IMG/VR virus record: IMGVR_UViG_3300045988_080502 | Location: 1-64,000 of that record | From: a virus | Strand: one strand, 5' to 3' | Length of the DNA: 64,000 bases | In this document: positions 1,606-64,000 of the stretch, piece after piece | Position numbering within the stretch: position 1 is the stretch's first letter | How the letters are laid out: each line of letters begins with the position of its first letter | Program-made: the position numbers and the translations under genes | The notes under the pieces: model-generated | Told to the model about the DNA's origin: nothing | What the model saw: the letters and a program-made list of their open reading frames with translations, nothing else | Database searches by the model: none

Positions 1606-1685
1606 AAATAAAACTCCCTTTCTTATATTATATAAATATTATATCATAAATATTATAAAAAATAAAGAGAGCTGTAAAGCTCTCT

Positions 1686-2411
1686 TTAAGAAAAGAATGG
1701 ACAAGTTGGCATAGGGGAAATCTTATGTAAATTTCTCTTATGTCTTTGTTCAATGTTTTTATATATCTCATATGGAGGAGTAATACCATTAAGTAGGAAA
1801 TTATCTAGGACATCATAAGAAAATCCTAAATTTTCCTCATCTGTTAAACCGCTTAATCCATCCTCTGGAGGCTTTTCAATGAAGTTCTTTGGCAATCCAA
1901 GCTCAATACCAATTTCTTTAACTTCCGTGGCAGTATAATTAGAGAGAATAGAAAAATCTCCTGCTGCATCTCCAAATTTAGTAGAATAGCCTACATAGTC
2001 TTCACTTCTATTGCAAGTATTCACAACTCTTCCATGACGGCTCGCGGCGATTGCATAAAGGATATTCATTCTTACTCTTGCTGGAACATTACTTGTAACT
2101 TGCGGCTGAATTCTAATATCATTGGGCAAAGACAAGAAAATCTCCTGACAAGATGAACCAATATTGATGTTGTAATGCTCTGTAATTTCGAGGTAATCAA
2201 TTACCTCATTAGAAACATCAATATCATATTGGAATCCCTGTGGCATTTGTACGGCAATTACTCGATTCGGGCCAAGAGCCTTACAAAGAAGAGCCGCAGC
2301 CACTGTAGAATCTTTGCCGCCAGAAATCCCGATAACAGCTTTACACTCCGGCCCGTTTTTTATGAAATACTCTTTAATCCAATCTATAATTTTAGTAACC
2401 GTATTAGTCAT
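1686..2411 (-). CDS. nadE: NH3-dependent NAD+ synthetase
   Basis: PP-loop SGGKDS motif and overall NadE-like length and arrangement. Confidence 0.8.
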   Translation of the reverse strand: MTNTVTKIIDWIKEYFIKNGPECKAVIGISGGKDSTVAAALLCKALGPNRVIAVQMPQGFQYDIDVSNEVIDYLEITEHYNINIGSSCQEIFLSLPNDIRIQPQVTSNVPARVRMNILYAIAASRHGRVVNTCNRSEDYVGYSTKFGDAAGDFSILSNYTATEVKEIGIELGLPKNFIEKPPEDGLSGLTDEENLGFSYDVLDNFLLNGITPPYEIYKNIEQRHKRNLHKISPMPTCPFFS

Positions 2412-3997
2412 AGAACTTCTCCCATCAATCTCTCTTTAATAGTTTCGATAGTCTCTACGCTCTCCGTACAGAAACTTCCATTCTTGACTTTAAATTTCAT
2501 TACATTGTTCTTATATCCAATGGATTCTTCAAGAGTAAGATTTTCTACTAAAGAATAATCGCCATTCTCCTCTTTAAAAATTGCAACACATCCACGAGGA
2601 GACTTTTTCCCAGGGTCGGTTTTAGGCATTTTATAAATCTGAATTTCATCATTGCCGAGGATACAATCTGTAGCTTTAATAGCATAGCCTCTAGTATCAC
2701 GAGTTACATACTGATAAGTATAAGCTCCAATTCCAAAACATAGATTGGATACTGAGATATTATTTCTAACGCACCAAGAGCAAACTTTTTCAGTAATCTC
2801 TGGAGTAATGGCATCTCCATAAATCATACGAATATAAGAAGGAAGAATAAAATATCCTTTAGTATTCAATTCACCGCCAAAGATTTCTTTTAGAAGATTT
2901 AAAGTTCCTATAAACTCAGGAGAACCGGGTACAGCATCTGGGTCGCCGCAGATAATCTTTACTGGGTCTCCACTATCAGGTCGTACAGAGAAACATCCAT
3001 CTCTTGTTGCAATAACATCATGCAACATGGGAAGAACCTTAGATACAATACCCCAATAATCATATGTATCTGATACATAAGTCATAGTTCCAGTAGGTTG
3101 CACTTCTATGCAAAGATAATTGATAAAAAGCATTTCTGCAATAAGGTTAATATCCCAATTATCAAAAGCGGCCTTAGAGAAAAGATAACGCTCAATTTCA
3201 GTTAAATCTCCATTAGTAATCTTCTGCTTCATCCAAGCTACACCTTGTTCAACAACAGAGTGTTCAAGAGAAGGAGTTCCCATCATGGGAGGATTATTCT
3301 CAAGATCTGCTCCATAGTATTTTTCAAGGAGAAGGTTAGAGCCAATGGTTGCAGTTCTATCAAAAGAAAGAGCATGGGCAGCCCCGGAGATATAGCCTGC
3401 CTCAAGACTTGTGTGTCCGCGCAGAGAAAAGTCGCCACACATATGCGGAAGAGCAGACATATCGTCGCAACTAGTCTTGACATAAGGCTCAATTAACTTG
3501 CGGCGATAAAAAGCGGTAGTGGCAGAAGTCGAGGGGAGCCAGTTATTAGCGCTCCACTGATCTTCGATAAATTGCGGAAGCCACGCAAAATTTTGATGAT
3601 TAGAAAAAATTACATGATCTGGAATCCCGACGGGAAGAAGCGTACCCTCTGGAACTCCCATGATAGAAATAGGTAAATAACCAAGTTTATGCAATTCTTT
3701 AAACTTGGTAAAATCCGCATAATCAGGATGGAAAGTATTTTTAATTACATGATTCCACTCCTGTTCAAGAAGCTCAACTGGCTGATCAAAGAACTCTGTC
3801 TGCCAAAATTCAAGCAGTTTCTGGATGGTATATTGATGACCAAAGACCACTGTCTTAGGGCAATTTGGATGGTGCTTATAACTGCGAGCTGTCCAAGTAG
3901 AATAAACCATAGAGGCAGACTTCGGCTGCATCTTAATAGCATGACCAACTTTGTAGTAGTCAGCGGCAAACATTGGAGCTACATCAAAGAAACTCAT
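2408..3997 (-). CDS. NAMPT/PncB-family phosphoribosyltransferase (nicotinamide/nicotinate PRTase; Namat-like)
   Basis: 529 aa. N-terminal DYYKVGH motif matches the D-x-YK-x-H block of NAMPT/NAPRTase. Adjacent to NAD-related genes. Confidence 0.75.
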   Translation of the reverse strand: MSFFDVAPMFAADYYKVGHAIKMQPKSASMVYSTWTARSYKHHPNCPKTVVFGHQYTIQKLLEFWQTEFFDQPVELLEQEWNHVIKNTFHPDYADFTKFKELHKLGYLPISIMGVPEGTLLPVGIPDHVIFSNHQNFAWLPQFIEDQWSANNWLPSTSATTAFYRRKLIEPYVKTSCDDMSALPHMCGDFSLRGHTSLEAGYISGAAHALSFDRTATIGSNLLLEKYYGADLENNPPMMGTPSLEHSVVEQGVAWMKQKITNGDLTEIERYLFSKAAFDNWDINLIAEMLFINYLCIEVQPTGTMTYVSDTYDYWGIVSKVLPMLHDVIATRDGCFSVRPDSGDPVKIICGDPDAVPGSPEFIGTLNLLKEIFGGELNTKGYFILPSYIRMIYGDAITPEITEKVCSWCVRNNISVSNLCFGIGAYTYQYVTRDTRGYAIKATDCILGNDEIQIYKMPKTDPGKKSPRGCVAIFKEENGDYSLVENLTLEESIGYKNNVMKFKVKNGSFCTESVETIETIKERLMGEVL

Positions 3998-4445
3998 AAA
4001 ATCTTCCTTTCCTTATTTCTTAAATATATTATATCATATATTTTTATAAAAATAAAAAGCCCTCTTTATGAGGGCTTTTATCAACTTTGAAGCAAGCTAA
4101 GCAACGCTTCAATTCCTACATATTCTGGCGCAATCGCACAAGTAATAAGCGGAACACTAACCATTACGCCGACTACTAATACAAACAATAATATAAATAG
4201 CAGTAAATGCCATCTACTATAATCTGCTTCCATCATTATATATAACACAAACCACACTATACCAATAAGTAAGAGGCCAGCAAAAACTCCTATAAAGAGA
4301 GTTGAAGTCAGGTCTTTAACGGTTACATATCAACCATATTTAGCCAACCACATGGGAGCGTTTTCCATAATAGTTTGAGTTGTTACTCCAAAAAATTCTG
4401 CGAGCGACTGAAGAATAGACGCGAGAGTCTGCTCTAAAGATAGAT

Positions 4446-4895
4446 TCACTTTAACAACCCTCCAACAACAGCACTTACAATCTTCATATCTACCTTACCT
4501 TTAAGCTCCATAGAAACAGATTTCATAAGCGTACCACGATTTGCTTTGAGGAGATCAATACCTGCGGTTCCCGCAATCTCTCTTACTTTTGTTTCAATTT
4601 CTGCCTTATCAGTAATAAGCTGAGGGGCGCACATCTTTACGACCTTCATATCCTCTTGATACTGATGTAATTTTTCAGGATAACTAGCAGGACAGGTATC
4701 AATCATTTCTTGTACTGTCTTTTGGTATTTGATAAGGGTTTCATCAACTAGCTGCTCAGTTAATTCAACTCTTCCTTTTGGAGTAATGGCTGCTTTCTGA
4801 CACGCATCAATCATATCAGAAAGCACCCTCTTTGTATTCATATCTCCATTTTTAAGAGCCATAATCTTTAACTCTTGAAGTTTCTCAATCGTCAT
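4446..4895 (-). CDS. GatB/YqeY-domain protein
   Basis: 149 aa helical protein with the YqeY-like pattern. Confidence 0.55.
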   Translation of the reverse strand: MTIEKLQELKIMALKNGDMNTKRVLSDMIDACQKAAITPKGRVELTEQLVDETLIKYQKTVQEMIDTCPASYPEKLHQYQEDMKVVKMCAPQLITDKAEIETKVREIAGTAGIDLLKANRGTLMKSVSMELKGKVDMKIVSAVVGGLLK

Positions 4896-5704
4896 CTTAC
4901 AATCTCTACCTTTCCTCTAATATCCCACTCTGGCTTGAAGATGCTATCAGAAGTGAAGATTTTCTTCACAATATCTTGATTATACATATCACCCTCAATC
5001 ATGGTATGTTCTGCATGGGTCACATACAGATAAACATTCTTTGCGCCAGCTTCTTTGAGGGCATTTGCTGCATGATAAAAAGTTCCACCACGAGAGCAAA
5101 TATCGTCTACAATTAAGACATTTCTCTCTTTAACAATTTCCTCATTCATTAATTGCAAACCAAGAATTTTTCCAGTAGACCAATCTCTTTTCTTAATTCC
5201 AAAAGCATAAGGAAGACTAATGGGTGGAGCAGAATATCTCTTCATCGCTCCTTCATCTGGGAAAAATAGGATAGGAATTTCTCCTTCATATTCCTCAGTT
5301 CTCTTAATAGCCTCTTTGATTTCTCCAATTGGACTAAGATCAATAACTCTATCAAGTAGAGCTAACGATACATTAGAATGAGCATCACGCACAATAACTT
5401 TATCAAAATGAAGGCTATTAATTACTTGACAGAAGTATTTTAGAGTAAATACATCTTCAAGTTCTTGAACTCGATCCATCCTTGCATGAGGAATATATAG
5501 CATATCTAGGTTTACAGGGAAATCTTCGAAATGTCCCTTAACACAAATGAGAGTAAATAATTCTGCATCATTCTCGTACTCCCAAACAATCGTATCATAA
5601 TCGAAGTAGTTGGGAGGCATGTTAATATGCAGCGTACCATCTGGAAAATGATTTTGTTCAATTACGTCTGTCCAATGACTGCGTGTATTAATTAGACTAA
5701 TCAT
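4892..5704 (-). CDS. Prs-family phosphoribosyl pyrophosphokinase-like enzyme (PRPP synthetase / Adps-like)
   Basis: Type I PRTase PRPP-binding motif VLIVDDICSRGGT near the C-terminus. Lies between the NAMPT-like and nicotinamidase-like genes. Confidence 0.6.
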   Translation of the reverse strand: MISLINTRSHWTDVIEQNHFPDGTLHINMPPNYFDYDTIVWEYENDAELFTLICVKGHFEDFPVNLDMLYIPHARMDRVQELEDVFTLKYFCQVINSLHFDKVIVRDAHSNVSLALLDRVIDLSPIGEIKEAIKRTEEYEGEIPILFFPDEGAMKRYSAPPISLPYAFGIKKRDWSTGKILGLQLMNEEIVKERNVLIVDDICSRGGTFYHAANALKEAGAKNVYLYVTHAEHTMIEGDMYNQDIVKKIFTSDSIFKPEWDIRGKVEIVR

Positions 5705-5707
5705 TTT

Positions 5708-6280
5708 TTAATCCTCCACATCAATCTGCTGGGCTTTGAAAATAGTTAGCGCTGCTTCATGCGATTCTGGAGTTACTCCTGCACACGCACTAGAATGGAC
5801 GATAATTCTAGTATTTGGCATCGCCGCACGAAGCATAACTGCATTAGCCATAACGCAAATATCGGTACAAAATCCACAGATATGAATTTCTACTTCCTCG
5901 GGATTCTTCATTTTTAGAGAATCGTATACTTCATTGACCATATCAGTACTGCCGAAGGTATCTTTTTCATAATAGTTAAATTTGTTATTCAACGCAACCA
6001 TAATTCTGGAATCCATACACCAGCCCACACTTGCTTTGATACAATGTTTAATGGGAAGTCTTTTTCCTTCCAAAGTATCAAAGTAATCATTATCATGGGT
6101 ATCCATGGTACAAATAACTTCCTCCCAACAGAATCGTTTAATTAGATTAACGATATTAGGAACCGCGGCATCCGCTGTCTTAGATCCCAAAGAACCAGTA
6201 ATAAAATCATTCTGCGCATCTACAATCACAAGAAGTCTATACATATCATAATTCCTTTCTTTTATATAAATATTATACAA
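5708..6280 (-). CDS. isochorismatase-family hydrolase (nicotinamidase PncA-like)
   Basis: VIVDAQNDF ... catalytic Cys in the CGFCTDICV cysteine-hydrolase signature. Confidence 0.7.
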   Translation of the reverse strand: MYNIYIKERNYDMYRLLVIVDAQNDFITGSLGSKTADAAVPNIVNLIKRFCWEEVICTMDTHDNDYFDTLEGKRLPIKHCIKASVGWCMDSRIMVALNNKFNYYEKDTFGSTDMVNEVYDSLKMKNPEEVEIHICGFCTDICVMANAVMLRAAMPNTRIIVHSSACAGVTPESHEAALTIFKAQQIDVED

Positions 6281-6491
6281 TATTTTATTATAAAATTAAA
6301 GGAGAGAATATACTCTCCTTTAATTTAAAGTTTAATTGGTTATAGAATTGCGTTTATTAGTACACAAAGAAATGTAGCTCCAATGCCAGTATAATACCCA
6401 AGATAAAACTCTTCATCAACTGGGCCAAAAATAGTTTGAACCGTATAATAAACAAAGAGCATACCTACCGCTCCCAAAATAATTCCTAACA

Positions 6492-7763
6492 TTAGATCTC
6501 TTCCTCCTGAGCCTCTTCCATGTCAGGTACATTCTCACTTTCTTTAATAATTCCCTCGATGACTTTAAACTCATAAGTCTTAGACTTAAAAGCTGTGAAA
6601 GCACGACGATTTACAATTCGGACAACGACGCCCTCTTTTACATGGGTGCGGCCGATCGGATCAGTGAGATCTTCGAAGTATTTGTTAATGCGCTCCTGCA
6701 AATCCTCTATGGTAGTAAATTCAAAATCCTCAATCACAGGAACTCGATTAAAGCCATGAGCATTACACCATTCAGTAATCTCGTCAGGAGTCCACTCTCT
6801 TTCTCCATTTTCAGAGGTAATACGATAAATATACATCTTGCTCTGACCAGGCTCACATCCATAAGAGAAAATAGAACGCTTACCAAACTGCTTTACAAAA
6901 GCCTTATCATTGACTTTGGTATTATCTCCGATAGGCATAATGGTGTTCTCTTCATTAGGGCCGTAATAACCCACTACTTCGTAGAAAACTTCCATTCCGG
7001 GCTCAAGATAAGGTTTCAATGCTTCATGATGTGGCATACGAAACTGGTCATTTCCATAAAATCCCTGAGAGTTCTCTGTGACTACACAACGACGAGTTCC
7101 AAGAACATAAGCCTGCTTAGTGCGCTTTTTCATATGGAAGAGGCGACGGAAGAAACCATTAGGAAGCTAAGCATAAGTATTCATAGAGCGCTGAGAAGTT
7201 CCGTGCATTTTAAGGGTCATATTGAGAATATCTCCGGAGCGGAACTTATCAAGATTATATGCCAATTGTTCAGTATCAGTATGCATAGAGAACTCAGGAT
7301 ATGTAATTCCCTCAGCCTTACGACCTTTATAAGAAGTCTTAACCTGACCAGTGGGAGTCTTGCGCTTAGGAATGTATTTACGGCAAAATTCTTTGTCGTT
7401 GATAGTGTTTACCTTATCTCCATCTTTCCAGTTCTGATTTCCGAATTTTTCATAAACTTTATCAAGAGCAATTACAACACCAGAACTCTGATTGCCGCGA
7501 AGCTTAATAGCCCTGATATGTCCATTATTTTCGATGTAGCCACCCTGAGGAGTTCCATCCTCGTTCTTGCGGAAGAGGCAAAATTCATTCCCGAACCATC
7601 TCTCAATCTCGCCATCAGTAGGAAGATAAAGAACCAACTGACCGGTTTGCATATCAGGGCCGACAATTACGCCCTCATTGAAACAATCTGCAAGATAAAG
7701 GCGGTCACTATTCTCGTCCTTCCGCGCATTCTGCAACTTAGTTACAAGACCAAAATATGCCAT
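6492..7763 (-). CDS. ATP-dependent RNA ligase (Rnl2-like) with one in-frame TAG at 7167-7169
   Basis: ORFs 7167..7763 and 6492..7133 are in the same frame, separated only by a TAG. KMHGTS matches the Rnl2 KxHG lysine-adenylation motif I. Confidence 0.65.
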
Positions 7764-7782
7764 TCTATATCATTCTCCTTTC

Positions 7783-8121
7783 TTACCATTTATCATATCT
7801 GTCATGATCAGGATCTTCCTCAACAGTAGTTACCAAATAGGAAAGCCAACCTTCAATTTCCTCTTGATATATACCAGAGATTTCATCTTCATCTTCTTGG
7901 GTCAGTTCATCTTCGGTCAGTTCATTTTCTTCGCAATATTGCTCTCGAATGTCTCCCTCAGACAAAATTCCGTGCATACCCTCATAAGATTGGTACTCTT
8001 CAATCGCTAGCTCTCGAGCGGCTTCCTCGGCGTCTTCTCTAGAGTCATAATCTTCTGTGCAATGATATTGATACCCGCCAAATCCTCCGCCCAGGCCTGC
8101 GTATAAATTATATTTAGCCAT
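7783..8121 (-). CDS. hypothetical acidic protein
   Basis: ORF with RBS; very acidic C-terminal half. Confidence 0.4.
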   Translation of the reverse strand: MAKYNLYAGLGGGFGGYQYHCTEDYDSREDAEEAARELAIEEYQSYEGMHGILSEGDIREQYCEENELTEDELTQEDEDEISGIYQEEIEGWLSYLVTTVEEDPDHDRYDKW

Positions 8122-8929
8122 TTACTCTCCTCCAACCCATTCCGTAGTAGTGGTTACCACCCTTGATAGCTTTCTCGATGTTTTTTATCGTATTTTCAAG
8201 ATTGAAATGCTCATAGGCGTCAGACTCGCATTTATTTTCTTTAAGCCACAATGCAGCAGCTTCAACACTAGTAAAAGTATTTGTAGCCCGCTTCTTAGAA
8301 TTAACAATGCAAATAGTTCCAGCAGGATAACCAGCTTTATTCCATTTAGGAATAAAAACACTTTCTTTATTAGTTGCTTTCCTCTTCCAATCAGCGAACA
8401 TTTCATCAAGTGTTTCTCTTGATGTGTTACTTATAAAATCATATACTTCCTTTAGTAGAACTGCATCATCTAAGGAGTTGTGATTTTGTTCAGCAGAAGG
8501 ATTAAATCTTCTGAGAGTATTCAAAAGACTGTGATTACATTCCCATTTCAGCTCTTTTTTGCACATCTTGGCATAATCTCGATAATTGCCACAAATATAT
8601 CCCAACGCCATTTTTGCTTTAAGTGCAGTCGCATGACGAGAAGTATGTCGAATAAAATCTCCATCAGAATTTCCCCATACAAGAAATTCTGGTGCGTCAT
8701 CTAGATTTTCAAACAACCAATCATAGAACTTAGAGAATACGGCATCGGCAGACATAGCACTATCAATCATCTCTGCTGTGATACCAGTAAGATTAGTAAT
8801 GAAAGGAGTAATTTTACCTTTCTTTGGTGCTACGAGTGCATAAAAAGTCTGACCATCCTCTCTGATACATCCGACAGAAATAATTTCCTGCGAAAATTGC
8901 GTAGCCTCAAAGTCGATAAAATATTTCAT
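8114..8929 (-). CDS. DEDD-family 3'-5' exonuclease (DnaQ-like)
   Basis: N-terminal FIDFEAT...SVG ExoI motif. Confidence 0.65.
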   Translation of the reverse strand: MKYFIDFEATQFSQEIISVGCIREDGQTFYALVAPKKGKITPFITNLTGITAEMIDSAMSADAVFSKFYDWLFENLDDAPEFLVWGNSDGDFIRHTSRHATALKAKMALGYICGNYRDYAKMCKKELKWECNHSLLNTLRRFNPSAEQNHNSLDDAVLLKEVYDFISNTSRETLDEMFADWKRKATNKESVFIPKWNKAGYPAGTICIVNSKKRATNTFTSVEAAALWLKENKCESDAYEHFNLENTIKNIEKAIKGGNHYYGMGWRRVNG

Positions 8930-9191
8930 TACTAATAATCTCCCCTCTTAATAATTTTGAAACTCCATTGTTACAGGAAGAACTTTGTGTTTCTGTTCAA
9001 ATTGATCCCAAATTACCTCTTCTCTTGACACTATTACCTTCATAGGTTGTGATTGAGAAGCAATTTGTTGAACAGTTTGAATAAATTTAATCTCTATGAA
9101 TGGTCTCGGCGCCTGCATTCTCCATTGTCGAATAATTTGATTATCTAGATAGATACTAAAAGTAACATCAAAAATATCTTCATTCATGACA

Positions 9192-9539
9192 TTAATAAAC
9201 ATCATATCCCTGCCTTCTCATTACAGCCAATGATTTATATACCATTTTACCCATGCTCTTACTTTTTGCTTTTGTTACATTTCCCATTTCAATTAAATGA
9301 GAAAGAATACGAGCCATCTTCTGAGGGCTTAACCCTGTTAATGTAATTGATCTTTGCTGAATTTGCTCAATAGTAAGAGCCTCTTCGCTATCAGCAAGAA
9401 TTACCATTACTTCTCCTTGAAACAAGGCGTTCTGATCTTTTGTATATTTTGAAGTTCTGCGACCTGGCATATTACTGTACCTCCTTATAGGAAATAACCC
9501 TAATATTTTCAAGTTTTTCAGTATAGGAAGTCCTGCCAT
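9192..9539 (-). CDS. hypothetical protein
   Basis: ORF only. Confidence 0.35.
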   Translation of the reverse strand: MAGLPILKNLKILGLFPIRRYSNMPGRRTSKYTKDQNALFQGEVMVILADSEEALTIEQIQQRSITLTGLSPQKMARILSHLIEMGNVTKAKSKSMGKMVYKSLAVMRRQGYDVY

Positions 9540-9718
9540 TATAGATAACTACAATCTTATTCTCGCGGTCAACGCCAACAATCTTACCATCACGACCGCT
9601 AAGAGTCTTCACGATTGTTCCTTCACATACATAAGGCATCATATAAATTACTTCCTTTCTTAACTTTCTATATATATTATATCATATAAAAATAAAAAAA
9701 TAAAGAAGATGATAATGG

Positions 9719-33995: not shown

Positions 33996-34031
33996 AATAG
34001 CAATCTCCTTTTCTATTGTTTAATCTTCTGA

Positions 34032-34637
34032 CTAGATAAACTTCCAAATAAATCCGTAAGCAGTTTTTCTTTGACCATTAGCACATTGACTTATATGCGC
34101 CCTCGGTTTACCAATCGAACGCCCTGCCGCGGAGAGATTTTCGAATACCGCCAATAATTCTCCATTTTCAGAATATTGAGCCACTGGTCTACCATATTCT
34201 TTACCAACTTCAGCCGGAGTTTTAACAATTTCATTGGCTTGATTTACTATCCTGCCGACAGTATGTTCATCATACCCTAGAATATCAGCAGTCTTTTTTA
34301 TTTTATGGGTTTCTCGAAAAACACGCAGAACTAAATCATAATCTATATATCTACGTCCATCACCACCTTGGGTTGCATTATATCCATGCTTAAAACTCCC
34401 AAGCTGTTCAATCCAGTAAATTTCTCTCTCTTCTGGATTATTTGTTTCTTCAATTAGTTCAATATGAAAATGTTCAACTCCATATTTTCGCATCGCAGAA
34501 TACAAAGGACGCTTTTCGCTACGCTCCTTAAAAGCATCTCTACAATGTTCTTTAAAGCGTTTTTCGATAGAAAATTCAGTTTTTCCGACATAAATTTTAT
34601 CATTTATGTCATTGATAATCTAATAAATGTATGCCAT
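34032..34637 (-). CDS. GIY-YIG homing endonuclease with in-frame TAG at 34620-34622
   Basis: MAYIYQIINDINDKIYVGKTE (Q is TAG) ... EREIYWIEQLGSFKHGYNATQGG ... YGFIWKF. Track ORF 34032..34505 is the in-frame remainder. Confidence 0.7.
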
Positions 34638-39227: not shown

Positions 39228-39941
39228 TTATAAACTCCAATCAATCGGTTCTCCACCCATAGAAAGCAGTAAATTATTTGCTGTTGAAAACGGTTTACTA
39301 CCTTTAAACGCAGGAGTTCCTTTACATGGTTTACTTACACTAAAAGGACTTGGATGGGAAGATAAAATATAAGCCTTCTTAATCAAATTCTCTCTGGCAA
39401 CTCCAGGTCCATCCCATACCATAGGACTAGAATTTAAATCTTTTAATAAATTCTGAGCATTAGCTCCCCATAACATAAAAACAATAGGTTGTGGCAAATG
39501 GGTTGCGGCTTTCAGCACCGCTGTTGTAAACCTACTCCATCCCCAATTAACACAGCTATTGGCTTGATGTTCATAGACAGTTAAACTTGCATTAAGAAGC
39601 AATACTCCTCTTTCTGCCCAAGATGTTAAATCTCCAGACTGCGGAATTGGAATCCCTAAATCGCTATTAAGCTCGCTAAAAATATTTCTTAAAGATGGTT
39701 GAATGGGGCTCCCATCAGAAATAGAAAATGCTAACCCGTTTGCTGCGCCTGGGGTATGATACGGGTCTTGTCCTACAATACAAACTTTTACATCTTCTGG
39801 ATGCGTAAGATTAAGCGCTCTAAAGATTTTATCCTATTCTGGAAATAAAATCTTTCCTTTAGAGCGCTCTTCTAAAGCATGATTTTCAAGTTGAACACTT
39901 AAATCCAGTGCCTCTTGAGGAAGAATTTCCGACCATTTCAC
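39228..39941 (-). CDS. ung: uracil-DNA glycosylase (family 1) with in-frame TAG at 39834-39836
   Basis: GTG start with RBS aaggagt. ILFPEQDKIFRAL (Q is TAG, aligns with the UNG PPQ block), VCIVGQDPYH, HPSPFS, GEPIDW. Confidence 0.8.
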
Positions 39942-46145: not shown

Positions 46146-46240
46146 GGTATTTTTGTCCAAAATTTTCTAACGAGTGTCCAAAAATTTCTAATAAAGTGTC
46201 CGATTTTTTCTAATAACTTGTCCAAAATTTTCTAATGTAT
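46146..46240 (+). repeat. four direct repeats of ~22 bp (TGTCCAAAATTTTCTAA core), operator/iteron-like
   Basis: ttgtccaaaattttctaacgag, tgtccaaaaatttctaataaag, tgtccgattttttctaataact, tgtccaaaattttctaatgtat. Immediately upstream of the RHH gene. Confidence 0.6.
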
Positions 46241-46346
46241 TGATTGTTCTATTGTTTATAATTTTAGAAAAAAGTTTAACAAATTTTAGGACAAAACCAG
46301 AAAATTATGTTATAATAAAAGTAAAGAATAGTAGAGAGGTGATTTT

Positions 46347-46490
46347 ATGAATTATTCCACTGTTTCTGTTAGATTAACAGAGGAAGAGAAGAAAGATTTG
46401 GAAGTCTTTGCTAAGAGTTGTGATTTAACAATGTCTTAGGTAATTAGAAAGGCTGTTAAAGAATATATTGAGAAAAATAAAATAGACTAA
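46347..46490 (+). CDS. ribbon-helix-helix (CopG/Arc-like) DNA-binding protein with 1 TAG
   Basis: MNYSTVSVRLTEEEKKDLEVFAKSCDLTMSQVIRKAVKEYIEKNKID (Q is TAG at 46437). Confidence 0.65.
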
Positions 46491-46505
46491 AGGAGATTAA
46501 ACTAA

Positions 46506-46727
46506 ATGACTAATGATACTTATAAAGTTTTTACGGTAAAGTTAGCACGCAAACTTTGTGATCTTGGTTTTATTATTGTTGGAACTGTTCCTAATGTTTA
46601 GAAACCTTGGTTAAATGTTTATCTTTTTGAAGATAGTTAGGATTTAAGGGATGCAGTTTAGAAGTATAAAGGGATAAGTTCGCTATTGGAGGATGATTGC
46701 CATGGCAGACAAAAGAAGAAGTCCTAA
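46506..46727 (+). CDS. small hypothetical protein with 3 in-frame TAG
   Basis: Codon-by-codon frame check: TAGs at 46599, 46638 and 46659; TAA stop at 46725. Confidence 0.45.
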
Positions 46728-47091
46728 TTAGCGAACTATTAATCATATTCATAAGGAACCATGTGATACTAATAATATATATGCTAGGATTAATAAGGAA
46801 GCGTTATTTGCGGCCCGTAGAGAGTTGACAGATGGAGAGTTTTCTTTGTGGATATTTTTTGCTAGTCAATCTGAGAAGTTAATTGATTATGATTTTGGGC
46901 CTACTATTATAGAAAAAGAGCTTGGTATAAAGAGAGCGAAATATACAAGTGCAATAGATGGATTGGTAAAAAAGGGATATTTAGTTCCAGTTGAGAGAAA
47001 AGGATATTACGATTTTTACGAGATTCCTATTGATAGTGACGACGATAAGTATAATTATATAGCTCCAGATGGAGAGAAATTTTCTTTTTAA
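46702..47091 (+). CDS. hypothetical DNA-binding-like protein with 1 TAG (46729)
   Basis: ATG 46702 is in frame with track ORF 46825..47091. Confidence 0.45.
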
Positions 47092-47118
47092 TCGTATTTC
47101 TGCAATACTATAAAAAAA

Positions 47119-47420
47119 TTTCATGTATTTCTGAGAATACTATGATTTCATCATATTGTGAAAAAGCTATGAAATTTTCATGTATTTGTTGGAAAACGAT
47201 GAAATTGTTTTCATGGTATTCTGATAATACTATGAAATTAAATAAAAAGGATTTTCATAGCTTTCCAACAATACCATGTCATAGTATTCTGACAATACCA
47301 TGAAAGTAAATAAAAATCCATTTCATGGTATTCTGACAATACAACAAATATAACATATATTAGATAACAGAATTAAGATAACAGTCGCGACTTTTTCATG
47401 TATTTGTGAAAAAGCGATGA
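47119..47420 (+). repeat. array of ~6 related repeats with palindromic core CATGGTATTCTGACAATACCATG
   Basis: Units at ~47119, 47177, 47208, 47273, 47316 and 47393. Noncoding, between the plus-strand small genes. Confidence 0.6.
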
Positions 47421-47436
47421 GTAGGAGGATTAAGGC

Positions 47437-47703
47437 ATGGAAGTATTTAAACCGATTAAGGTAGAAAATTATCAATTCATGAAGAATGGATTAAATTAGT
47501 ATGAACCAGTATTAGTTTACTTTAAAGATGATGAAGAAGAAGGCAAGGTATATTTTGTAAAGAATAAATTTGATGATAAGTTAGAAGAATGGATGGAAGA
47601 GAATTTAAAGGTAGAAGGAAGAAGTAGAGTTATAGTAGATAAGTATAGATGTTTTTACTCAAGATTTAGAGGACTCTATAACCGATTTAGAAAAACGAAT
47701 TGA
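47437..47703 (+). CDS. hypothetical protein with 1 TAG (47497)
   Basis: RBS gtaggagga; frame verified to TGA at 47701. Confidence 0.45.
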
Positions 47704-51059: not shown

Positions 51060-51470
51060 TTACGCCATCTTAAAGAGGGACTTGCCCTTCTTCTCCGTGC
51101 AGACCACTCGACCATCAAGTTTCAACTGCCGCGCAAGGGCGGCGACCTTCTGGTTAGAATAGGCCGTCAGATCAGGAATAGCCTTGAAAATTTCCGTGCA
51201 GGTCACGCCATCGGTATCGGCATCCAGACCAGCCAGATACTCCATAATCTGCTCCTTAAAATTCTCATTCTCCTGCTGGGTGGGAGTCAGCTTCTTATCA
51301 CCGCTGGAGCTATTCTTCTTACGCAGAAGCTCCAGCTCATGGTCAATGACAGTAATAGCCACCTCGATGGTAGTGCCATACTTTACCTCGCCGTCAGTCA
51401 AGAGGGCCTTAATGTCCTCAAAACGCTGGGCCTTAGTAATGCGGATTTTCTTCTCGTCCATAATATACAT
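51060..51470 (-). CDS. hypothetical protein
   Basis: ORF. Confidence 0.4.
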   Translation of the reverse strand: MYIMDEKKIRITKAQRFEDIKALLTDGEVKYGTTIEVAITVIDHELELLRKKNSSSGDKKLTPTQQENENFKEQIMEYLAGLDADTDGVTCTEIFKAIPDLTAYSNQKVAALARQLKLDGRVVCTEKKGKSLFKMA

Positions 51471-54304: not shown

Positions 54305-54538
54305 TCAATCGGCATTTTCAACAATCTTTAATCCGTTTGCTTGGATAATTTTCATAGCTTCTTCAAGCGAGGAATCAACCGATCCGCAGTCAATACAGAT
54401 ATATTTTCTACCATCTTTTACCATAGTAGTAAAATAGTATTCCTAACCGGAAGTAAGTCCCATTTGTTCACGCAAGCGAATCGGAATCATAATTCTACCA
54501 CTTGAATCTAATTTGCGAGAGAAAGTAGTTTCTTGCAT
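54305..54538 (-). CDS. AbrB/SpoVT-family DNA-binding protein with 1 TAG (54443-54445)
   Basis: MQETTFSRKLDSSGRIMIPIRLREQMGLTSGQEYY...; 78 codons verified against the sequence. Confidence 0.55.
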
Positions 54539-57868: not shown

Positions 57869-58306
57869 TTAATTATAAAGCTGATACTTCTTCCCAATTT
57901 TGTCAATTTCTTCCGCCTCCATTGGCCTAAATCCAATACACGTCAAAGTCCCTTCCGGGCCTTCGCGTTCTAACTCTGTTCTACAAGCATCATAGATAAG
58001 CCAATAATCCTTATTCTCTTCCCATCCTAATTCTTCTGCTATCTTAACAGCCTTTAACAAATCATTCTTATTCTTCGCTCTACAAACTACTTTGGTCTCC
58101 GCTTCCGCTATCCAATTATGGAATAAGTCTCTATCGAGGCTTATTCCTATATGATACATAAGACCGTCTCTTTCTTTAACAACTTCTTTACTTCCCCAAT
58201 ATAACTTTTCCAAAAGAAAAGCAATAGAAGCATGGGAAACTTGTGCGGCAAGTTTCCCTGGAGACATATTTAAGTCTCGCCTCGCAATAATTAATTGCTT
58301 GAACAT
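57869..58306 (-). CDS. peptidyl-tRNA hydrolase, PTH2 family
   Basis: RRDLNMSPGKLAAQVSHAS matches the Pth2 signature. Confidence 0.7.
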   Translation of the reverse strand: MFKQLIIARRDLNMSPGKLAAQVSHASIAFLLEKLYWGSKEVVKERDGLMYHIGISLDRDLFHNWIAEAETKVVCRAKNKNDLLKAVKIAEELGWEENKDYWLIYDACRTELEREGPEGTLTCIGFRPMEAEEIDKIGKKYQLYN

Positions 58307-59121
58307 TTTTCCAAAACCTCCAAGAAAATTCTAAAATTGCGGGAATTGCGGTTTGGAATCGCAAAATAGATATTTGGAATATTATAATTGCGGGCTGCGT
58401 TTACGAGCAAGGTGGCGACCGTTGATGGATCTTGCATAAAAACACCACAGCCCCAGGCTCCCGCGATTAAATTTTCCACTCCCTTAACCTCGGCAATTCG
58501 ATACATAAAATTAATTCTCTCTTCCATTATCCTATTGTTTAGAGAAAGAGGAACTTGCTGATAAGTATGTGCTGTTCTATAATTAGGAGAAGCACAAGTA
58601 ATTACATCAGCTAATTTTCTACTATCGTCTTTTTCAAAGACTACATCAGGAGTATAGATAGCTCTATCAAGATATAGGGCTCGATTCAGTCTCTGTCTAT
58701 TCCATGCGTAATAAGTATCATCAAAAGCAAGAAGAATAGGATAAAGGTTGCTTTCGTGACACAATGCCTCTTCTTGTGCAGAGCTACCTCCAAGGAAATA
58801 ACCACCTGGATGTTTATAGCTTGCATAATTTAAGATCGCAGTCTTGCTCCGATCGGTTAAACCGAATAGGCAGGATACACTATCTTGGTCTTTAAGATAA
58901 AAGGTATTATGGTGGGTTTCTCGCGGTTTTTGCGGAAAAGGAAGATTGGGGCCAAAAATTTCAGAGTTTATAATTGCGCGATCTGTATCTTCCCTGAGTC
59001 TCACTTTAATGTCTGCGTAATGCGATTGCGCGTGTTGTTTGAGCTCTTCTCGTTTCATTGCAGTTTCCTTTCTTCCGTGCGGTTGGGCAGAAGTGGATAA
59101 TTTAATTATCCCAATCTTCAA
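58291..59121 (-). CDS. macrodomain protein, bacterial-type PARG-like (DUF2263-like)
   Basis: GGYFLGGSSAQEEALCHESNLY and AGAWGCGVF motifs. Confidence 0.6.
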   Translation of the reverse strand: MKIGIIKLSTSAQPHGRKETAMKREELKQHAQSHYADIKVRLREDTDRAIINSEIFGPNLPFPQKPRETHHNTFYLKDQDSVSCLFGLTDRSKTAILNYASYKHPGGYFLGGSSAQEEALCHESNLYPILLAFDDTYYAWNRQRLNRALYLDRAIYTPDVVFEKDDSRKLADVITCASPNYRTAHTYQQVPLSLNNRIMEERINFMYRIAEVKGVENLIAGAWGCGVFMQDPSTVATLLVNAARNYNIPNIYFAIPNRNSRNFRIFLEVLEKCSSN

Positions 59122-59659
59122 ATAAAGTGTGTAAACTATTTGTTTCCGCCGCTAATCTCTTTAAATATTCTTTAAGCATTTTATTTTCTTTAACTTTAAT
59201 TGCATAATCGCAAGTATTGTCGCAGTCTGGTGTGTACTACCGACCGAATCTATTATAACAATAATCAATGCAAGGACACATTTTACTCATATTTACACCC
59301 ATTCATTCTACAGTCTATTGTGCATTGCCCTGACGCTCCTTCACAAGGAATAGCATCAGGATAGTATTCAAAATAAGACGAGGTTAATAGAACTTCATAT
59401 CCAAGTTCCCGCAGTATTCTTTCTGCGACATATCTATCTCTTAATTTAATCCATTCTTCTCTATTTACTTTTGTTTCTTCATATATTTTTCGAGATTCTT
59501 CCATATCTATTGTTATGATACCATCGGTGTTAGTTTTAAATACTGAAGGACTTTGTGTATGATAAAATTTTCGAAAGGGATTGTTAATATGAAGAACTTC
59601 TTCAGCATATTTGTCAAAATCTCCCGAAAATTTCATTATCTTTGCGCCTGTTTCGCTAA

Positions 59660-60421
59660 CTATAAACAATTTTTCATCAACCCCAATCTTGTTAATAGAC
59701 CTACTCCTCCGGGGACAGGAGTTGACCATACATTATTTCTTTTTGCAATTTCATCAATTTCTACAAAGTCTCCAAGAATAATTCCTGCTTCATTTCTGCG
59801 AATACCAACATCTATAACAATAGCGTTAGGACAGGCTTCTCTTGTTAAGCTAAATTTTCCTACCGCAGAGACAATTAAATCTGCTTGCCTTGTTAAATAG
59901 AGTTTTGTATTTATATCTGTTTTGCTATGACATACTGATACGGTCATATTTCTATCCAGTAGAGCTTTAGCCATTGGCTTTCCTACAATATCGCTTCTTC
60001 CCAAAATAACAGCAGATTTACCTTCGTAGTTAAAACCACATTCATCCAAATAGTCTATAATTCCTCTTACTGTTGCTGGAGTAATATTGCTCATAGGATT
60101 TAAACCATCCGCATCTTTAGAGATAGGTATTTGACTATAATTGAAATCAATTCCATTTGCTACTGGCATTTGAACTATTACCGCATCCCAGTCTTTCGCA
60201 TGGCCTAAGAGTAATCTTAACTCTACTGAACTATTCGCTCTAAACACTTCTGCTTCCCAACCAAGAGCATTAAAGTCTTTTATTTTATTACGAATATAAA
60301 TTTGATTTGCGGGATCCTAGGCTGTTGCGTCGATAATCATGAGTGATGGAACATTACCACTAATCTCCCGCAATTTGTTTACCTATTGTTGAAAATATTC
60401 TTTTATATTAATCTATTGCAT
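59660..60421 (-). CDS. folD: bifunctional methylene-THF dehydrogenase/cyclohydrolase FolD with 3 in-frame TAG
   Basis: ATG 60419-60421 with RBS ggagg. DPANQIYIRNK, DAVIVQMPVANGID, ILGRSDIVGKPMA, VIDVGI, TPVPGGVG. TAGs at 60413, 60383 and 60317. Confidence 0.75.
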
Positions 60422-60866
60422 CTGGATTAAGCCTCCAAGGGTCACTAGTATCGTAATCAATCATTTCATAGAAAGATATTTCATTTTCATTAACTTCTAA
60501 TACCTAGTGAGGAATACACTATACTTCATAGTCAAAATCTTTATTAATATGGTAAGAAGTATATATATGAATAGCAATAGGTCTAGGATCATTAACTCCC
60601 TAAATATCCCATAAACTTATTGCTTTATTTTGGAAGATTTCCTAAGCATACTATGGAGATATAGCAATACTGATTATTAAGATATTAAAATAATACTATG
60701 CTTTTTTCGGTAAATCTAAATATGGTTCGTCAAAGAACATTGGCAAACAAATCTCCTATCTTATTTTTTATAATTATATTATAACATTTTTAAATAAATT
60801 AATCAAATAAGATTTGACAATCTAGTTTTTTTTTGTTATTATATGAGTATAAAAGGAGATGACAGT

Positions 60867-61913
60867 ATGATAAAATTAGATTATACTATTGAGTCTCCAG
60901 AAGAACGGAAGGCGCTTGTCGAAAAAATAATCGCAGAAAATCCGAACCTTAGTTCGAGTTATTTAGAAATATTAGCAGATTATTTAGTTCTATGTATGGA
61001 AAAGCAAGAGAAGAAAGAAAAGAATATATTAACAGATAATAGAATGGCTACTGTTAATAAAAGAGAATGTTCTTTCGAAGGGCTTGCGTCATAGATGGAA
61101 AATGGCGAGGATGGCATTTATGGTTTAATGTCAGAAAATAAAAATGTTATATTTTAGCCAAAGATTTCTATTACACAGAAAGATTTAGATACTATACCAT
61201 GTTTAAAATAGTTGAGAGAAACCATTAATGTCTGGGAGGGCGCTTTAAAACGCGCTGCTGGGACAAAATAGGCATATATGATGAAAAAAGCATTAATAGA
61301 GATGCGAAAAGATTAGTATATCATTAAGCAAGCATATTAGAAACCTATTATACCATGTAAATTAACGAGATCCGTAAGAACTCATATTCCTCTTGATGAT
61401 TAGAGTTATCTTAATGGACAGGAGGTAGTAGTAAAGGGTATTTCGCTAATGGACGCCAATGTTGTTTCTGCTATTTTATGCAATTATTCAAAATTAAAAG
61501 AAGATAGTTATGATTAGTTTGAGGGAGATACATGGTATTTAATTCAATCATTTGAAGAAATATGTGATAAAGCTCTCAAAGACTTTCCAATCTATTTACG
61601 AATTGTTGAACTCAAAATTGATAAAAAGTAGAATAACGAAATATAGGAAATATTAAAAAATGAGTTTGGTAAAACATATAGCGTTGAATATATTTCTAGC
61701 CTATGGAGAAATAAGATTCCTAAACTCATTGCGGAAGAAGCTTTAGAAGATTTTTTACGTTGGTAGTATAAACAAAAAGGATACCCAATGAAAAAATGTT
61801 CTAAGTGTGGGCAATTAAAGCCAGCCCATAATCAATTCTTTTCAAAGAATAAGACAAGTAAGGATAATTTGTATAGTATCTGTAAGCGCTGTCGCAATAA
61901 GAAAAGAGGTTGA
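60867..61913 (+). CDS. hypothetical protein, 349 codons with 12 in-frame TAG; C-terminal zinc ribbon
   Basis: RBS aaggag. Single frame open to TGA 61911 apart from TAGs. Ends KKCSKCGQLKPAHNQFF..CKRCRNKKRG. Confidence 0.55.
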
Positions 61914-61919
61914 TTATAA

Positions 61920-63089
61920 ATGAGCCATTATTGTAAAAAATGTGGTAAAACTATGGATGATAAATAGTTTTATACATCAAAAAATTTAGAGAAGTATCCT
62001 CCAGATGGAAAGATGGATATTTGTAAAAAGTGTCTTACTATGCACGTAGATAACTGGGATCCAGAAACTTATAAATGGATTTTATAGGAGATTGACGTTC
62101 CATATATTAAAGAAGAATGGAATGGTTTATTGGAGAAATATGGAAAAGATCCAAAGAAAGTTACTGGATTAACTATTATTGGACGCTATTTATCTAAAAT
62201 GAAATTAAAGCAATGGAATAAATACACTTGGGCAGATACAGAAACGCTAGAGAAAGATTCCATTGATAAAAAAGTTCTTAATATGAAGGCTCAAGGATTT
62301 ACAGAAGATGAAATTCAAGAGCAGTTGTCTATTGATAGAACTCCTCCAAAACCAAAAGAATTAGAGGATGTTTAGGCCCCTGTAGGAACTCCAGAATATG
62401 AAGATCCAGAGGAAGATGATGATTTTGGTGATTAGCTAACCGAAGAAGATAAATTAGTATTACGTCTTAAATGGGGCCGCGGATATTCTTGGGAAGAAAG
62501 AGTAAGAATGGAGCAGCTTTATAATGATATGATGAGTTCTTATGATATTCAAGGAGCAGGTCATAAAGATACTCTTATTATGGTATGTAAAGCTAGTTTA
62601 AAAGCAAATTAGTTAATTGATGCTGGAGATATTGATGGCTTTTAGAAGATGCAAAAAGCCTATGATAGTTTAATGAAAAGCGGCAAATTTACGGCTGCTT
62701 AGAACAAAGGCGAATCCGGTGAATTTGTAGATTCAATAGGTGAATTAGTAGCCCTTTGTGAAAGAGAGGGTTTTATTCCTAGATATTATACGGAAGGGCC
62801 ACAAGATAAAGTAGATAGAACTCTTTAGGATTTACAGCAATATACTCATACTCTAGTTACAGAGGAAATGAATCTTGGTAATATGATCGAAGCTTCGTTA
62901 AGAGAAATAGTTAAAGACAGAGAACGCGAGGCAAATATTGATGTTGAAGATAGCGATGAGGATGAAGATTTATTTAATTACGAGCATCCAGAATTAACAG
63001 AAGAAGATTATCAAGAGTATGAAGATATGAAAGAGTCGGAAAGAGACAAAGATGAGGAAATGTTAAATAATATATTAAAGGAGGTTTAA
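61920..63089 (+). CDS. hypothetical protein (N-terminal zinc ribbon, acidic C-terminus; candidate small terminase subunit) with ~8 TAG
   Basis: Frame 61920 to TAA 63087 contains only TAG stops. Immediately upstream of TerL. Confidence 0.45.
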
Positions 63090-63092
63090 TAT

Positions 63093-63994
63093 ATGGCATT
63101 AAAAGATTTATTAAACCTTTCAAATAATAATAAGAAAATTGGTCTTTCCGAAGAAAGAGTTCGTGCGATAATTCCAGCAGCAAGATAGTATATAGCTTTT
63201 TGGAGAGAATATCCAGATATGTTTATTGACTTTTTGTAGACCGGCGGAGACGAGACAAGAAAAAAAGAAATTAATTTTTATTTTTATTAGAGAGTTTTCT
63301 TGCGGGCGGCCATGAGATATAAGTATGTATACATGGTATTTCCCCGTGCTTATTCTAAGTCATTCTTATCAGTAATGGTACTTATGTGTAGATGTATATT
63401 ATATCCTGGATGTAAGCTATTCATTACTTCTGGCGGAAAAGAATAGGCAGCAGGTATTGCAAAAGAAAAAGTCTAGGAAATTTGTAATGCGATTCCCGCA
63501 CTTTAGAGAGAGATTGATTGGCGAAGAGGTAAGACTTAGGAAGGAAAAGATTATTGTAAGTATATCTTCAAAAATGGATCTTATTTTGACAACGTCGCGG
63601 CTAGAGAATCTTCTCGTGGTAAGCGTAGACATGGAGGATTAATTGAGGAGTGCGTTGGTGTAGATGGAGATATTTTAAATGAAGTTTTAATCCCTCTAAT
63701 GAACGTTGATAGAAGATGTTTAGACGGATCTGTTCATGAAGAAGAAACACTTAATAAATCTTAGATTTATGTAACTACTGCGGGGTGGAAAAACACATTC
63801 CCATATAATAAGTTGATTACTTTGCTAGTGCGCATGATACTAGAACCCGAAAAGAGTATTGTAATGGGCGGAACATGGAGAATTCCTGTGCTAGTGGGAT
63901 TGCAATCCCGCAACTTTGTATAGGAGTTAAAACAAGATGGTACATTTAATGAAGCATCATTTGATAGAGAGTATGAATCTAAATGGAGTGGCAC
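63093..63994 (+). CDS. terL: terminase large subunit, N-terminal part (continues beyond window), multiple TAG
   Basis: RBS aaggaggt. KEQAAGIAKEKV Walker-like ATPase region and later crAss-type TerL-like blocks; open apart from TAG. Confidence 0.55.
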
Positions 63995-64000
63995 CGTAGA

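Follow-up and report, generated by a model that had tools for sequence, protein, structure and literature searches.

The 64,000-nt stretch analysed here (the window: positions 1 to 64,000 of IMG/VR virus record IMGVR_UViG_3300045988_080502) appears to be part of a ~146-kb SPbeta-like siphophage that uses genetic code 15, in which TAG is read as glutamine (Gln), and has a putative gut Clostridia host. In-frame TAG codons form a mosaic of TAG-free and TAG-bearing units with no monotonic gradient, a pattern that is likely to reflect constraint by time and required output, TAG being tolerated only where translation is late and output is low. An initial annotation, made from the sequence, had described a steep TAG gradient between metabolic and late genes and had read it as a timing switch. 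The contrast it saw is real (chi-square across blocks 218, 9 degrees of freedom, p = 6e-42), but its form is that of a mosaic.

Density spans 1 TAG in 5,040 codons in an accessory block (27–16904, − strand; block A), where the one TAG lies in an RNA ligase gene, to 2.7 per 100 codons at 59636–63998, divided between 59.6–60.7 kb (10 TAG in 373 codons) and 60.9–64.0 kb (28 in 1,038). The other blocks hold 16 TAG in 1,483 codons (fibre block, 19.5–24.0 kb), 1 in 2,428 (37.6–46.0 kb), 6 in 337 (a + strand island, 46.3–47.7 kb) and 2 in 2,276 (48.0–59.3 kb), and all − strand genes between 25.6 and 59.3 kb together have 8 in 6,007. Genes were delimited from code-15 open reading frames (ORFs) with a codon-usage score and ribosome-binding sites, excluding tRNA overlaps. 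A per-gene recount under code 15 gave no uniform density, dispersion lying above all 20,000 random allocations whether these were made over all codons or over Gln codons only. Chance is ruled out as the cause by these allocations and the chi-square value, and a gene-calling artefact was also rejected.

Most counts in the initial annotation hold at gene level. The long genes of 27–16676 that it called free of TAG, encoding Thg1 (27–881), NadE (1686–2411), NAMPT (2408–3997), an MVP-like protein (12303–14744) and a DUF2828/DUF7788 protein (15156–16676), all have none, and RNA ligase (6492–7763) and UDG (39228–39941) have the one each that it reported. Its figure of five per about 190 codons in fibre genes is seen at 23142–23708 (5/188), the remaining fibre-like genes having 2/445 (19506–20843), 5/390 (20869–22041) and 2/307 (22059–22982). 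Two points required correction: the gene at 60867 has 11 TAG rather than 12, the twelfth asterisk in its translation being the terminal TGA, and a metabolic function does not imply freedom from TAG, as a FolD gene carries four. Other carriers outside the virion genes include RNA ligase, UDG, two GIY-YIG endonucleases and an AbrB-like gene. Between 25600 and 59302 TAG is confined to the GIY-YIG genes at 28551–29333 (three) and 34020–34637 (two), UDG, the AbrB-like gene (54305–54538) and an ORF at 59102–59302 (one each).

The TAG-rich end of the window comprises two divergent units. On the − strand, a FolD-like methylene-tetrahydrofolate dehydrogenase/cyclohydrolase gene (59636–60421; PF02882, 3.2e-38, and PF00763) has 4 TAG in 261 codons, at least one of which (codon 35) is inside the Pfam catalytic domain, and 14 of 25 recoded orthologs also carry TAG. 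The adjacent orf112 (60408–60746, − strand), for which no family was found, has 6 in 112 codons and is the densest gene in the window (5.4 per 100 codons; mean for orthologs 3.1). On the + strand, the late operon starts with genes for a phrog_5767 protein (60867–61913; PHROGs; 11 TAG in 348 codons), which ends in a C-terminal Cys4 zinc ribbon, and a phrog_3314 protein (61920–63089), where 8 TAG in 389 codons agree with the approximate count of eight given earlier. Both are syntenic with genes upstream of the large terminase gene (TerL) in non-recoded phages. TerL follows directly and is cut by the window end; its N-terminal 301 codons (63093–63998, + strand) contain 9 TAG, in line with the multiple TAG noted there before. 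PHROGs and some GenBank records label phrog_5767 a ‘sigma factor’, but neither sigma-70 region 2/4 domains nor a sigma-like fold was found in it. Pfam returned nothing for TerL, phrog_5767, phrog_3314, orf112 or the portal, scaffold-like and major capsid protein (MCP)-like proteins described below, and PDB sequence searches were empty or gave spurious matches only.

When TAG is treated as sense, ORFs of ≥600 nt cover 51% of bases instead of 33%, a rise not seen when TGA is treated as sense, and fragments fuse into full-length genes; TerL, phrog_5767, phrog_3314, FolD, UDG and RNA ligase can be aligned with homologs from end to end, across their TAG codons. In family searches of TAG-bearing proteins Q was put at TAG. 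At 842 aligned TAG sites over 14 lineages the counterpart is a Gln codon in 345 cases (41%; CAA 245, CAG 100), TAG itself in 81 (10%), Glu in 104 (12%), Lys in 53 (6%), Tyr in 13 and Trp in 2, and sites turn over fast between relatives. Within the three + strand genes (60867–63998) Gln is the commonest counterpart in four relatives (H1, E3, MT836163 and phAss-1). In TerL, all of them have Gln at codon 66, and those that are not recoded (H1, E3 and MT836163) have it at codons 118 and 224 too; phAss-1 has TAG at codon 118 and Lys at codon 224. These alignments indicate that TAG encodes Gln in the window phage. As a terminator it is avoided, and no gene requires a TAG stop: of the 69 TAG-free genes, 55 stop at TAA, 14 at TGA and none at TAG, and a TAG that could be a stop, within the last 4% of the ORF, is present in three genes only. 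Having neither TAG stops nor sense TAG, the TAG-free genes read identically under both codes.

TerL is of the SPbeta/YonF type (phrog_15503/phrog_2; tblastn). Its best match, at 61.6% identity, is an unannotated human faecal contig, followed by Enterococcus phages H1, VRE9 and EF1 (58–60%), Geobacillus virus E3 (54%) and phAss-1 (42.6% protein identity). Megablast of 40000–64000 against the GenBank phage collection gave zero matches, phAss-1 included, which places the window phage outside the Phassvirus genus. Eighty loci surrounding TerL were fetched from relatives. Late operons are recoded at 52 of them, and 25 loci with 69–73% TerL identity (including L047, L071, L065, L067 and L066) have no TAG in TerL; as roughly one in three of the fetched relatives lacks TAG in this operon, recoding has been gained or lost inside the clade, and intermediate lineages have 0.5–1.8 TAG per 100 codons. 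Dereplication of TerL at 96% identity left 21 lineages, in 20 of which the late operon bears one or more TAG. Close relatives were binned with Eubacterium, Oscillospiraceae, Lachnospiraceae and Clostridium metagenome-assembled genomes (MAGs) as stand-alone contigs of ~148 kb. Most genes of the window are on the − strand, as are all 30 of its tRNA genes (ARAGORN), and GC skew marks + strand islands at 46–48 kb and from 60.8 kb.

Beyond the end of the window the late operon was followed in these relatives. In L012, a 146,360-bp IMG/VR contig with 98.5% identity to the final 10 kb of the window, it runs from TerL (582 codons, 13 TAG) through a 119-aa gene (3), a 501-aa protein at the position expected of a portal (10) and a 406-aa gene (5) to 230-, 351- and 178-aa genes without TAG; five genes with 3–10 TAG each come next, and then the beginning of a phrog_2729 virion protein, which has zero TAG. 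Over the 20 recoded lineages that remain after dereplication, 3 TAG occur in 12,072 codons of the scaffold-like, MCP-like, 178-aa and phrog_2729 genes, compared with 406 in 51,204 for other late genes, and their freedom from TAG holds across all 52 recoded loci. Recoded late operons as a whole have 0.6–2.2 TAG per 100 codons, and TerL, portal, tail and fibre genes, in the window and relatives, 0.6–2.7. The earlier description of late genes as saturated with TAG is therefore apt for TerL, portal, tail and fibre genes, and fails for the scaffold-like, MCP-like, 178-aa and phrog_2729 genes.

The same four genes bear on a pure dosage filter, in which each TAG would cut yield through competition with release factor 1 (RF1), so that density would record how little of a protein is needed rather than when. 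TAG-free scaffold-like, MCP-like and phrog_2729 genes amid TAG-rich low-copy genes are what such a filter predicts, and these three have strong ribosome-binding sites, with a terminator-like hairpin 3′ of the MCP-like gene, which itself follows the portal and scaffold-like genes as fits a capsid gene. The base after TAG (+4) is also biased away from the strongest termination context: compared with CAA/CAG, A is enriched (0.38) and T depleted (0.17; p = 3e-4, for data that are non-independent), which hints weakly at a role for competition with termination. Dosage does not predict, however, that TAG is also missing from low-copy block A enzymes (Thg1, NadE, RlaP, exonuclease) and from dozens of small early genes, and as a sufficient explanation it seems unlikely.

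A neutral benchmark was provided by three codon pairs, TAG/CAG, TTG/CTG and TTA/CTA, each differing by a first-position C/T change. In TAG-bearing late genes the TAG:CAG ratio is 76:17 (4.5), with TTG:CTG at 7.1 and TTA:CTA at 4.1. Block A gives 1:71 for TAG:CAG, with 2.9 and 1.0 for the other pairs, and the capsid group 0:11, with 4.5 and 2.4. In TAG-bearing late genes TAG thus appears to behave as a fully synonymous codon at mutational equilibrium and, since TAG:CAG is at the neutral ratio and only 10% of sites stay TAG, positive selection for TAG is not required.

The suppressor tRNA, with anticodon CUA, is encoded at 17979–18054 (− strand; ARAGORN; Rfam tRNA, 59.8 bits), and its position is kept in relatives L091, L104 and L105. 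It has a U1·U72 mismatch and G73, and is nearest in sequence to the phage's own tRNA-Trp(CCA) (71% identity, with identical anticodon-loop flanks), being less similar to either of the two phage tRNA-Gln genes. Because it resembles tRNA-Trp more than tRNA-Gln, we infer charging with Gln from the protein alignments and not from the tRNA. A Trp-like tRNA would thus read a codon that aligns with Gln, in a host likely to be without glutaminyl-tRNA synthetase. Around the tRNA gene, Rfam gave no hepatitis delta virus (HDV)-like or theta ribozyme and no other adjoining family. The initial annotation placed the suppressor between the early and structural blocks; it does lie between the accessory and fibre blocks, but the morphogenesis operon is 43 kb off, at 60.8 kb on the other strand. 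A sigma-70-type promoter with a perfect 12/12 match (TTGACA-17-TATAAT with TG; 18492–18520, − strand) precedes an ORF at 18144–18470 and lies 438 nt upstream of the tRNA, and 11/12 sites are found 416–469 nt upstream of it in L104 and L105. The fibre operon upstream of this promoter stops at a terminator with a 19-bp stem (19459–19499). Given this consensus promoter, transcription of the suppressor probably begins at the onset of infection, in which case any delay in suppression would come from accumulation only.

Sigma-70 consensus sites matching at 11–12 of 12 positions number 22 in the window versus 3.75 in shuffles; 20 are intergenic, most of those 22–54 nt upstream of a gene start. The majority, near-consensus sites of host sigma-A type before small genes, fall in the TAG-poor 26.9–57.1 kb region, a concentration that supports its presumed early role. 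A further site (11/12; TTGACA-17-TATTAT with TG; 60814–60842, + strand) heads the packaging/morphogenesis operon; relatives of both kinds, recoded and non-recoded, keep it as TTGACA/TTGACT-17-TATAAT although their spacers differ. No sigma-70 −35/−10 sites are present in block A, which instead has a repeated − strand cassette of a terminator hairpin and T-run followed by an extended −10 without a −35 (TTTATTTTTTTATTTTTATATGATATAATAT, TATATGATATAATAT); copies at 1638, 4028, 9676 and 12241 are near-identical and variants lie near 6280, 15070 and 19209. Located between accessory-block genes, this cassette constitutes a promoter class distinct from the −35/−10 sites of 27–57 kb. The promoter-class mapping proposed with the initial annotation does not separate TAG-rich from TAG-free units, since both kinds carry host-type promoters.

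That recoded stops hold late or lytic genes untranslatable until the code switches is a published hypothesis (Yutin 2021, PMC7886860; Borges, 10.1101/2021.08.26.457843; Peters 2022, PMC9523058), and in its adaptive form selection would favour TAG in late, structural and lysis genes as a bar to premature or host-forced translation, with suppressor expression licensing the late programme. This form overlaps the constraint reading and is possible, though we regard it as doubtful. TAG is present in packaging, portal, tail and fibre genes but not in the early region rich in promoters; the two densest long genes head the late operon behind a conserved host-type promoter, so that translation could be the gate; and the homing endonucleases carry TAG, like an intron endonuclease reported by Borges et al. 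Yet TAG frequency equals the neutral synonymous expectation with no excess, conservation of TAG positions is poor, capsid and scaffold genes in the same operon lack TAG, and the suppressor itself sits behind a perfect early-type promoter. Non-recoded relatives (H1, EF1, VRE9, Geobacillus virus E3 and the 25 IMG/VR loci) have the same gene order (phrog_5767, phrog_3314, TerL, portal, scaffold-like, MCP-like) and the same sigma-70-type promoter before the first gene, with no in-frame TAG and CAA/CAG Gln codons where the window phage has TAG. What survives of the switch proposed in the initial annotation is that TAG-bearing genes need tRNA(CUA) for full-length protein and that genes needed earlier or independently, accessory and early, avoid TAG, which fits a weaker form of the published hypothesis.

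Gene history and composition could also be invoked, TAG-free genes being recent arrivals from standard-code donors. Some genes do look atypical in CAG use or G+C content at third codon positions (GC3): 15156–16676 has CAG 10 and CAA 1, RNA ligase CAG 14 and CAA 2, and 51060–51461 a GC3 of 0.65. Counts were stratified by GC3 as a composition control. Among genes with GC3 < 0.30, native-looking block A genes still have 0 TAG in 103 Gln codons, whereas TAG makes up 55% of Gln codons in the 59.6–64 kb genes, and base composition was rejected as the cause. Block A orthologs at 21 related loci (RNA ligase identity 69–97%) have ~10 TAG in ~56,000 codons, and orthologs stay TAG-free in relatives down to 35–70% identity. 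None of the 69 TAG-free genes stops at TAG, unlike fresh standard-code arrivals, and core capsid genes are TAG-free as well. The TAG-poor block A orthologs, the conserved tRNA site and the lack of TAG stops rule out recent transfer as the main cause; the explanation is largely refuted and would be very surprising if true.

Constraint accounts for the pattern most economically, and would make a purpose-built switch unnecessary. TAG would be a two-state codon, freely used or strictly purged gene by gene. It would be free in low-copy late genes (terminase, portal, head-completion, tail, fibres and the two operon-head proteins) and in FolD/orf112, and purged where the suppressor is absent or scarce, i.e. 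in the promoter-rich early region and in the accessory block of NAD-salvage, tRNA-repair and vault-like genes. Equally strict purging would apply to the late genes with the highest output, the scaffold-like and MCP-like genes and their neighbours. TAG-bearing proteins would be completed only once the suppressor tRNA outcompetes RF1. The neutral ratio, fast TAG turnover, TAG-free capsid genes and non-recoded relatives with a shared operon and promoter all favour this reading. Directly shown are the counts, TAG as Gln, the tRNA, the lack of TAG stops, conservation in relatives and the match to the neutral ratio, whereas the temporal classes, the competition with RF1 and abundance as the cause of the TAG-free capsid genes are inferred.

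Several points weigh against it. The labels ‘early’, ‘late’ and ‘high output’ derive from function and synteny together with promoter-like motifs and ribosome-binding sites, and the early timing of block A is an assumption, as this block has its own cassette instead of sigma-70 promoters. The late operon and the orf112–FolD unit are headed by host-type promoter matches as well. The capsid-gene result is drawn from relatives and not from the window itself, and the MCP assignment rests on weak matches: tblastn aligned the 351-aa protein (L012:15734–16786) to annotated capsid genes of Bacillus phages at E = 2e-7, with 22–24% identity over 85–88% of its length, and its AlphaFold2 (AF2) model is poor (mean predicted local distance difference test score, pLDDT, 45.8), so that the fold search, in which the top Foldseek matches were mostly HK97-fold capsids and encapsulins (best probability 0.97, E = 0.0095), is only suggestive. 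Finally, many relatives come from a single metagenome (3300045988), and lineage counts are therefore not fully independent even after dereplication at 96%.

The SPbeta-like affinity of the relatives raises a further alternative, a lysogeny lock, in which TAG would keep the lytic genes of a temperate phage untranslatable in the lysogen until the suppressor is induced. Recoded prophages are described by Borges et al., and the divergent + strand island (46347–47703; four short ORFs, 6 TAG in 337 codons), with its ribbon-helix-helix (RHH)-like first gene (47 aa) and adjoining iterons, could suit such a phage. No integrase or repressor was identified among the window proteins, the closest matches in genome collections are the stand-alone contigs in MAGs and not integrated prophages, and the suppressor promoter looks constitutive, making a lysogeny lock improbable. 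The iterons are four tandem 21–22-nt repeats (TGTCCAAAATTTTCTAA; 46154–46252, + strand) just upstream of the island, at a local GC skew flip, and could be an operator or a replication origin.

Uneven TAG use and the timing-switch idea are already described for recoded phages, and the broader group to which the window phage belongs has been flagged as recoded. Borges et al. treat crAss-like, Lak, Garnet, Amethyst and Topaz code-15 gut phages, with lysis genes as the focus, and Yutin et al. crAss-like phages (no lysis gene was identified here, in the window or the fetched flanks). As in those phages, a phage tRNA(CUA) is present, TAG corresponds to Gln, a standard-code Firmicutes or Bacteroidetes host is presumed, recoded stops concentrate in structural/late modules and are rare elsewhere, and near relatives use the standard code. 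Unlike them, the window phage belongs to a lineage with an SPbeta/YonF-type terminase, and neither a release factor nor an aminoacyl-tRNA synthetase was seen in the window. The all-or-none distribution, the match to the neutral ratio and the TAG-free major-capsid group within the late operon were not found in the available portions of published accounts of recoded phages; the word ‘capsid’ occurs 0 times in the text of the Borges preprint.

Two other published systems are close in some respect. phAss-1 (Babkin et al. 2023, PMC10607447) is a TAG-to-Gln gut phage from a wider gut group noted for suppressor TAG codons; it shares with the window phage a genome of ~136–146 kb, tens of tRNAs including tRNA-Sup(CTA), and TAG as Gln in TerL, portal and fibre genes, and the two TerL proteins share TAG codon 118. 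Identity to phAss-1 is 52.3% for the MCP-like protein, compared with the TerL value given above. It has three suppressor tRNAs versus the one seen in the window; TAG-carrying ORFs are listed in that paper, and no density analysis was found in the sections consulted. The crAss-like phages of Peters et al. 2022 (PMC9523058) resemble the window in combining code-11-compatible and code-15 regions in one genome and belong to a phage order unrelated to that of the window. Their late structural proteins carry Gln at TAG on peptide evidence, whereas here the assignment is based on alignments.

The remaining features of the window include further genes of the accessory and early regions. Block A, annotated with Pfam, encodes Thg1, two Metallophos proteins, NadE, NAMPT, YqeY, a phosphoribosyltransferase, an isochorismatase, RNA ligase, an RNase_T exonuclease, RlaP, and the MVP-like and DUF2828/DUF7788 proteins. 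Counter-defence-looking genes are dense at 27–11261 and 57869–59058 (− strand) and comprise a NAD salvage set (NadE, NAMPT, phosphoribosyltransferase, isochorismatase/nicotinamidase), a tRNA-repair set (Thg1, RNA ligase, RlaP, the two Metallophos proteins) and a YqeY/GatB-tail-like protein, peptidyl-tRNA hydrolase PTH2 and a microbial PARG. At 12303–16676 (− strand) the MVP-like gene (813 aa; MVP shoulder and Vault repeats) adjoins the DUF2828/DUF7788 gene (506 aa), a pair that is unusual for a phage and is kept in some relatives. The fibre-like block (19506–23974, − strand; 16 TAG, ending at the 19459–19499 terminator) is recognised by an Mtd_N domain and tail-fibre PHROGs.

The presumed early region (25600–59302, − strand) holds an array of 26 tRNAs, a transfer-messenger RNA (tmRNA) and many small, nearly TAG-free genes, among them the AbrB/SpoVT-like small regulator (54305–54538, − strand), whose one TAG is retained in 15 of 20 recoded orthologs. 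The tmRNA (28263–28583, − strand; Rfam RF00023, 76.8 bits, full length) was missed by ARAGORN. Read by eye, its tag frame is GAC GAA GAU UAU UUC GAA AAU UAU CUU GCU GCU UGA (DEDYFENYLAA), ending in UGA, after which UAG is the next codon in frame; the presence of a ribosome-rescue RNA in a phage with a recoded stop codon merits attention. A 117-nt Rfam tRNA match at 25779–25895 (− strand; 49.8 bits), absent from standard ARAGORN output, is called in intron mode as tRNA-Lys(CTT), its anticodon loop carrying a 42-nt insertion.

For annotation, genes of this phage need to be called under code 15, otherwise a third of the late genes in the window fall apart. A more far-reaching combination of the elements above, in which the amber codon is a dosage-and-timing filter and the late operon, with its conserved host-type promoter and the two genes densest in TAG at its head, is transcribed early and gated at translation by the accumulation of one tRNA, is rather unlikely in our estimation. 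Were it true, the code switch and not a transcription cascade would be the main clock for packaging and tail proteins, and the amber codon would also set virion stoichiometry, the cost of suppression clearing TAG from capsid and scaffold genes as thoroughly as from early ones. Because its recoded and non-recoded members have the operon and its promoter in common, the clade forms a natural comparison set. All-or-none use of TAG, the neutral ratio and the exclusion from high-output genes suggest that suppression has a measurable cost and that constraint, as much as selection, may shape recoding; if these features hold in other recoded clades, they could sharpen the hypothesis of the field.

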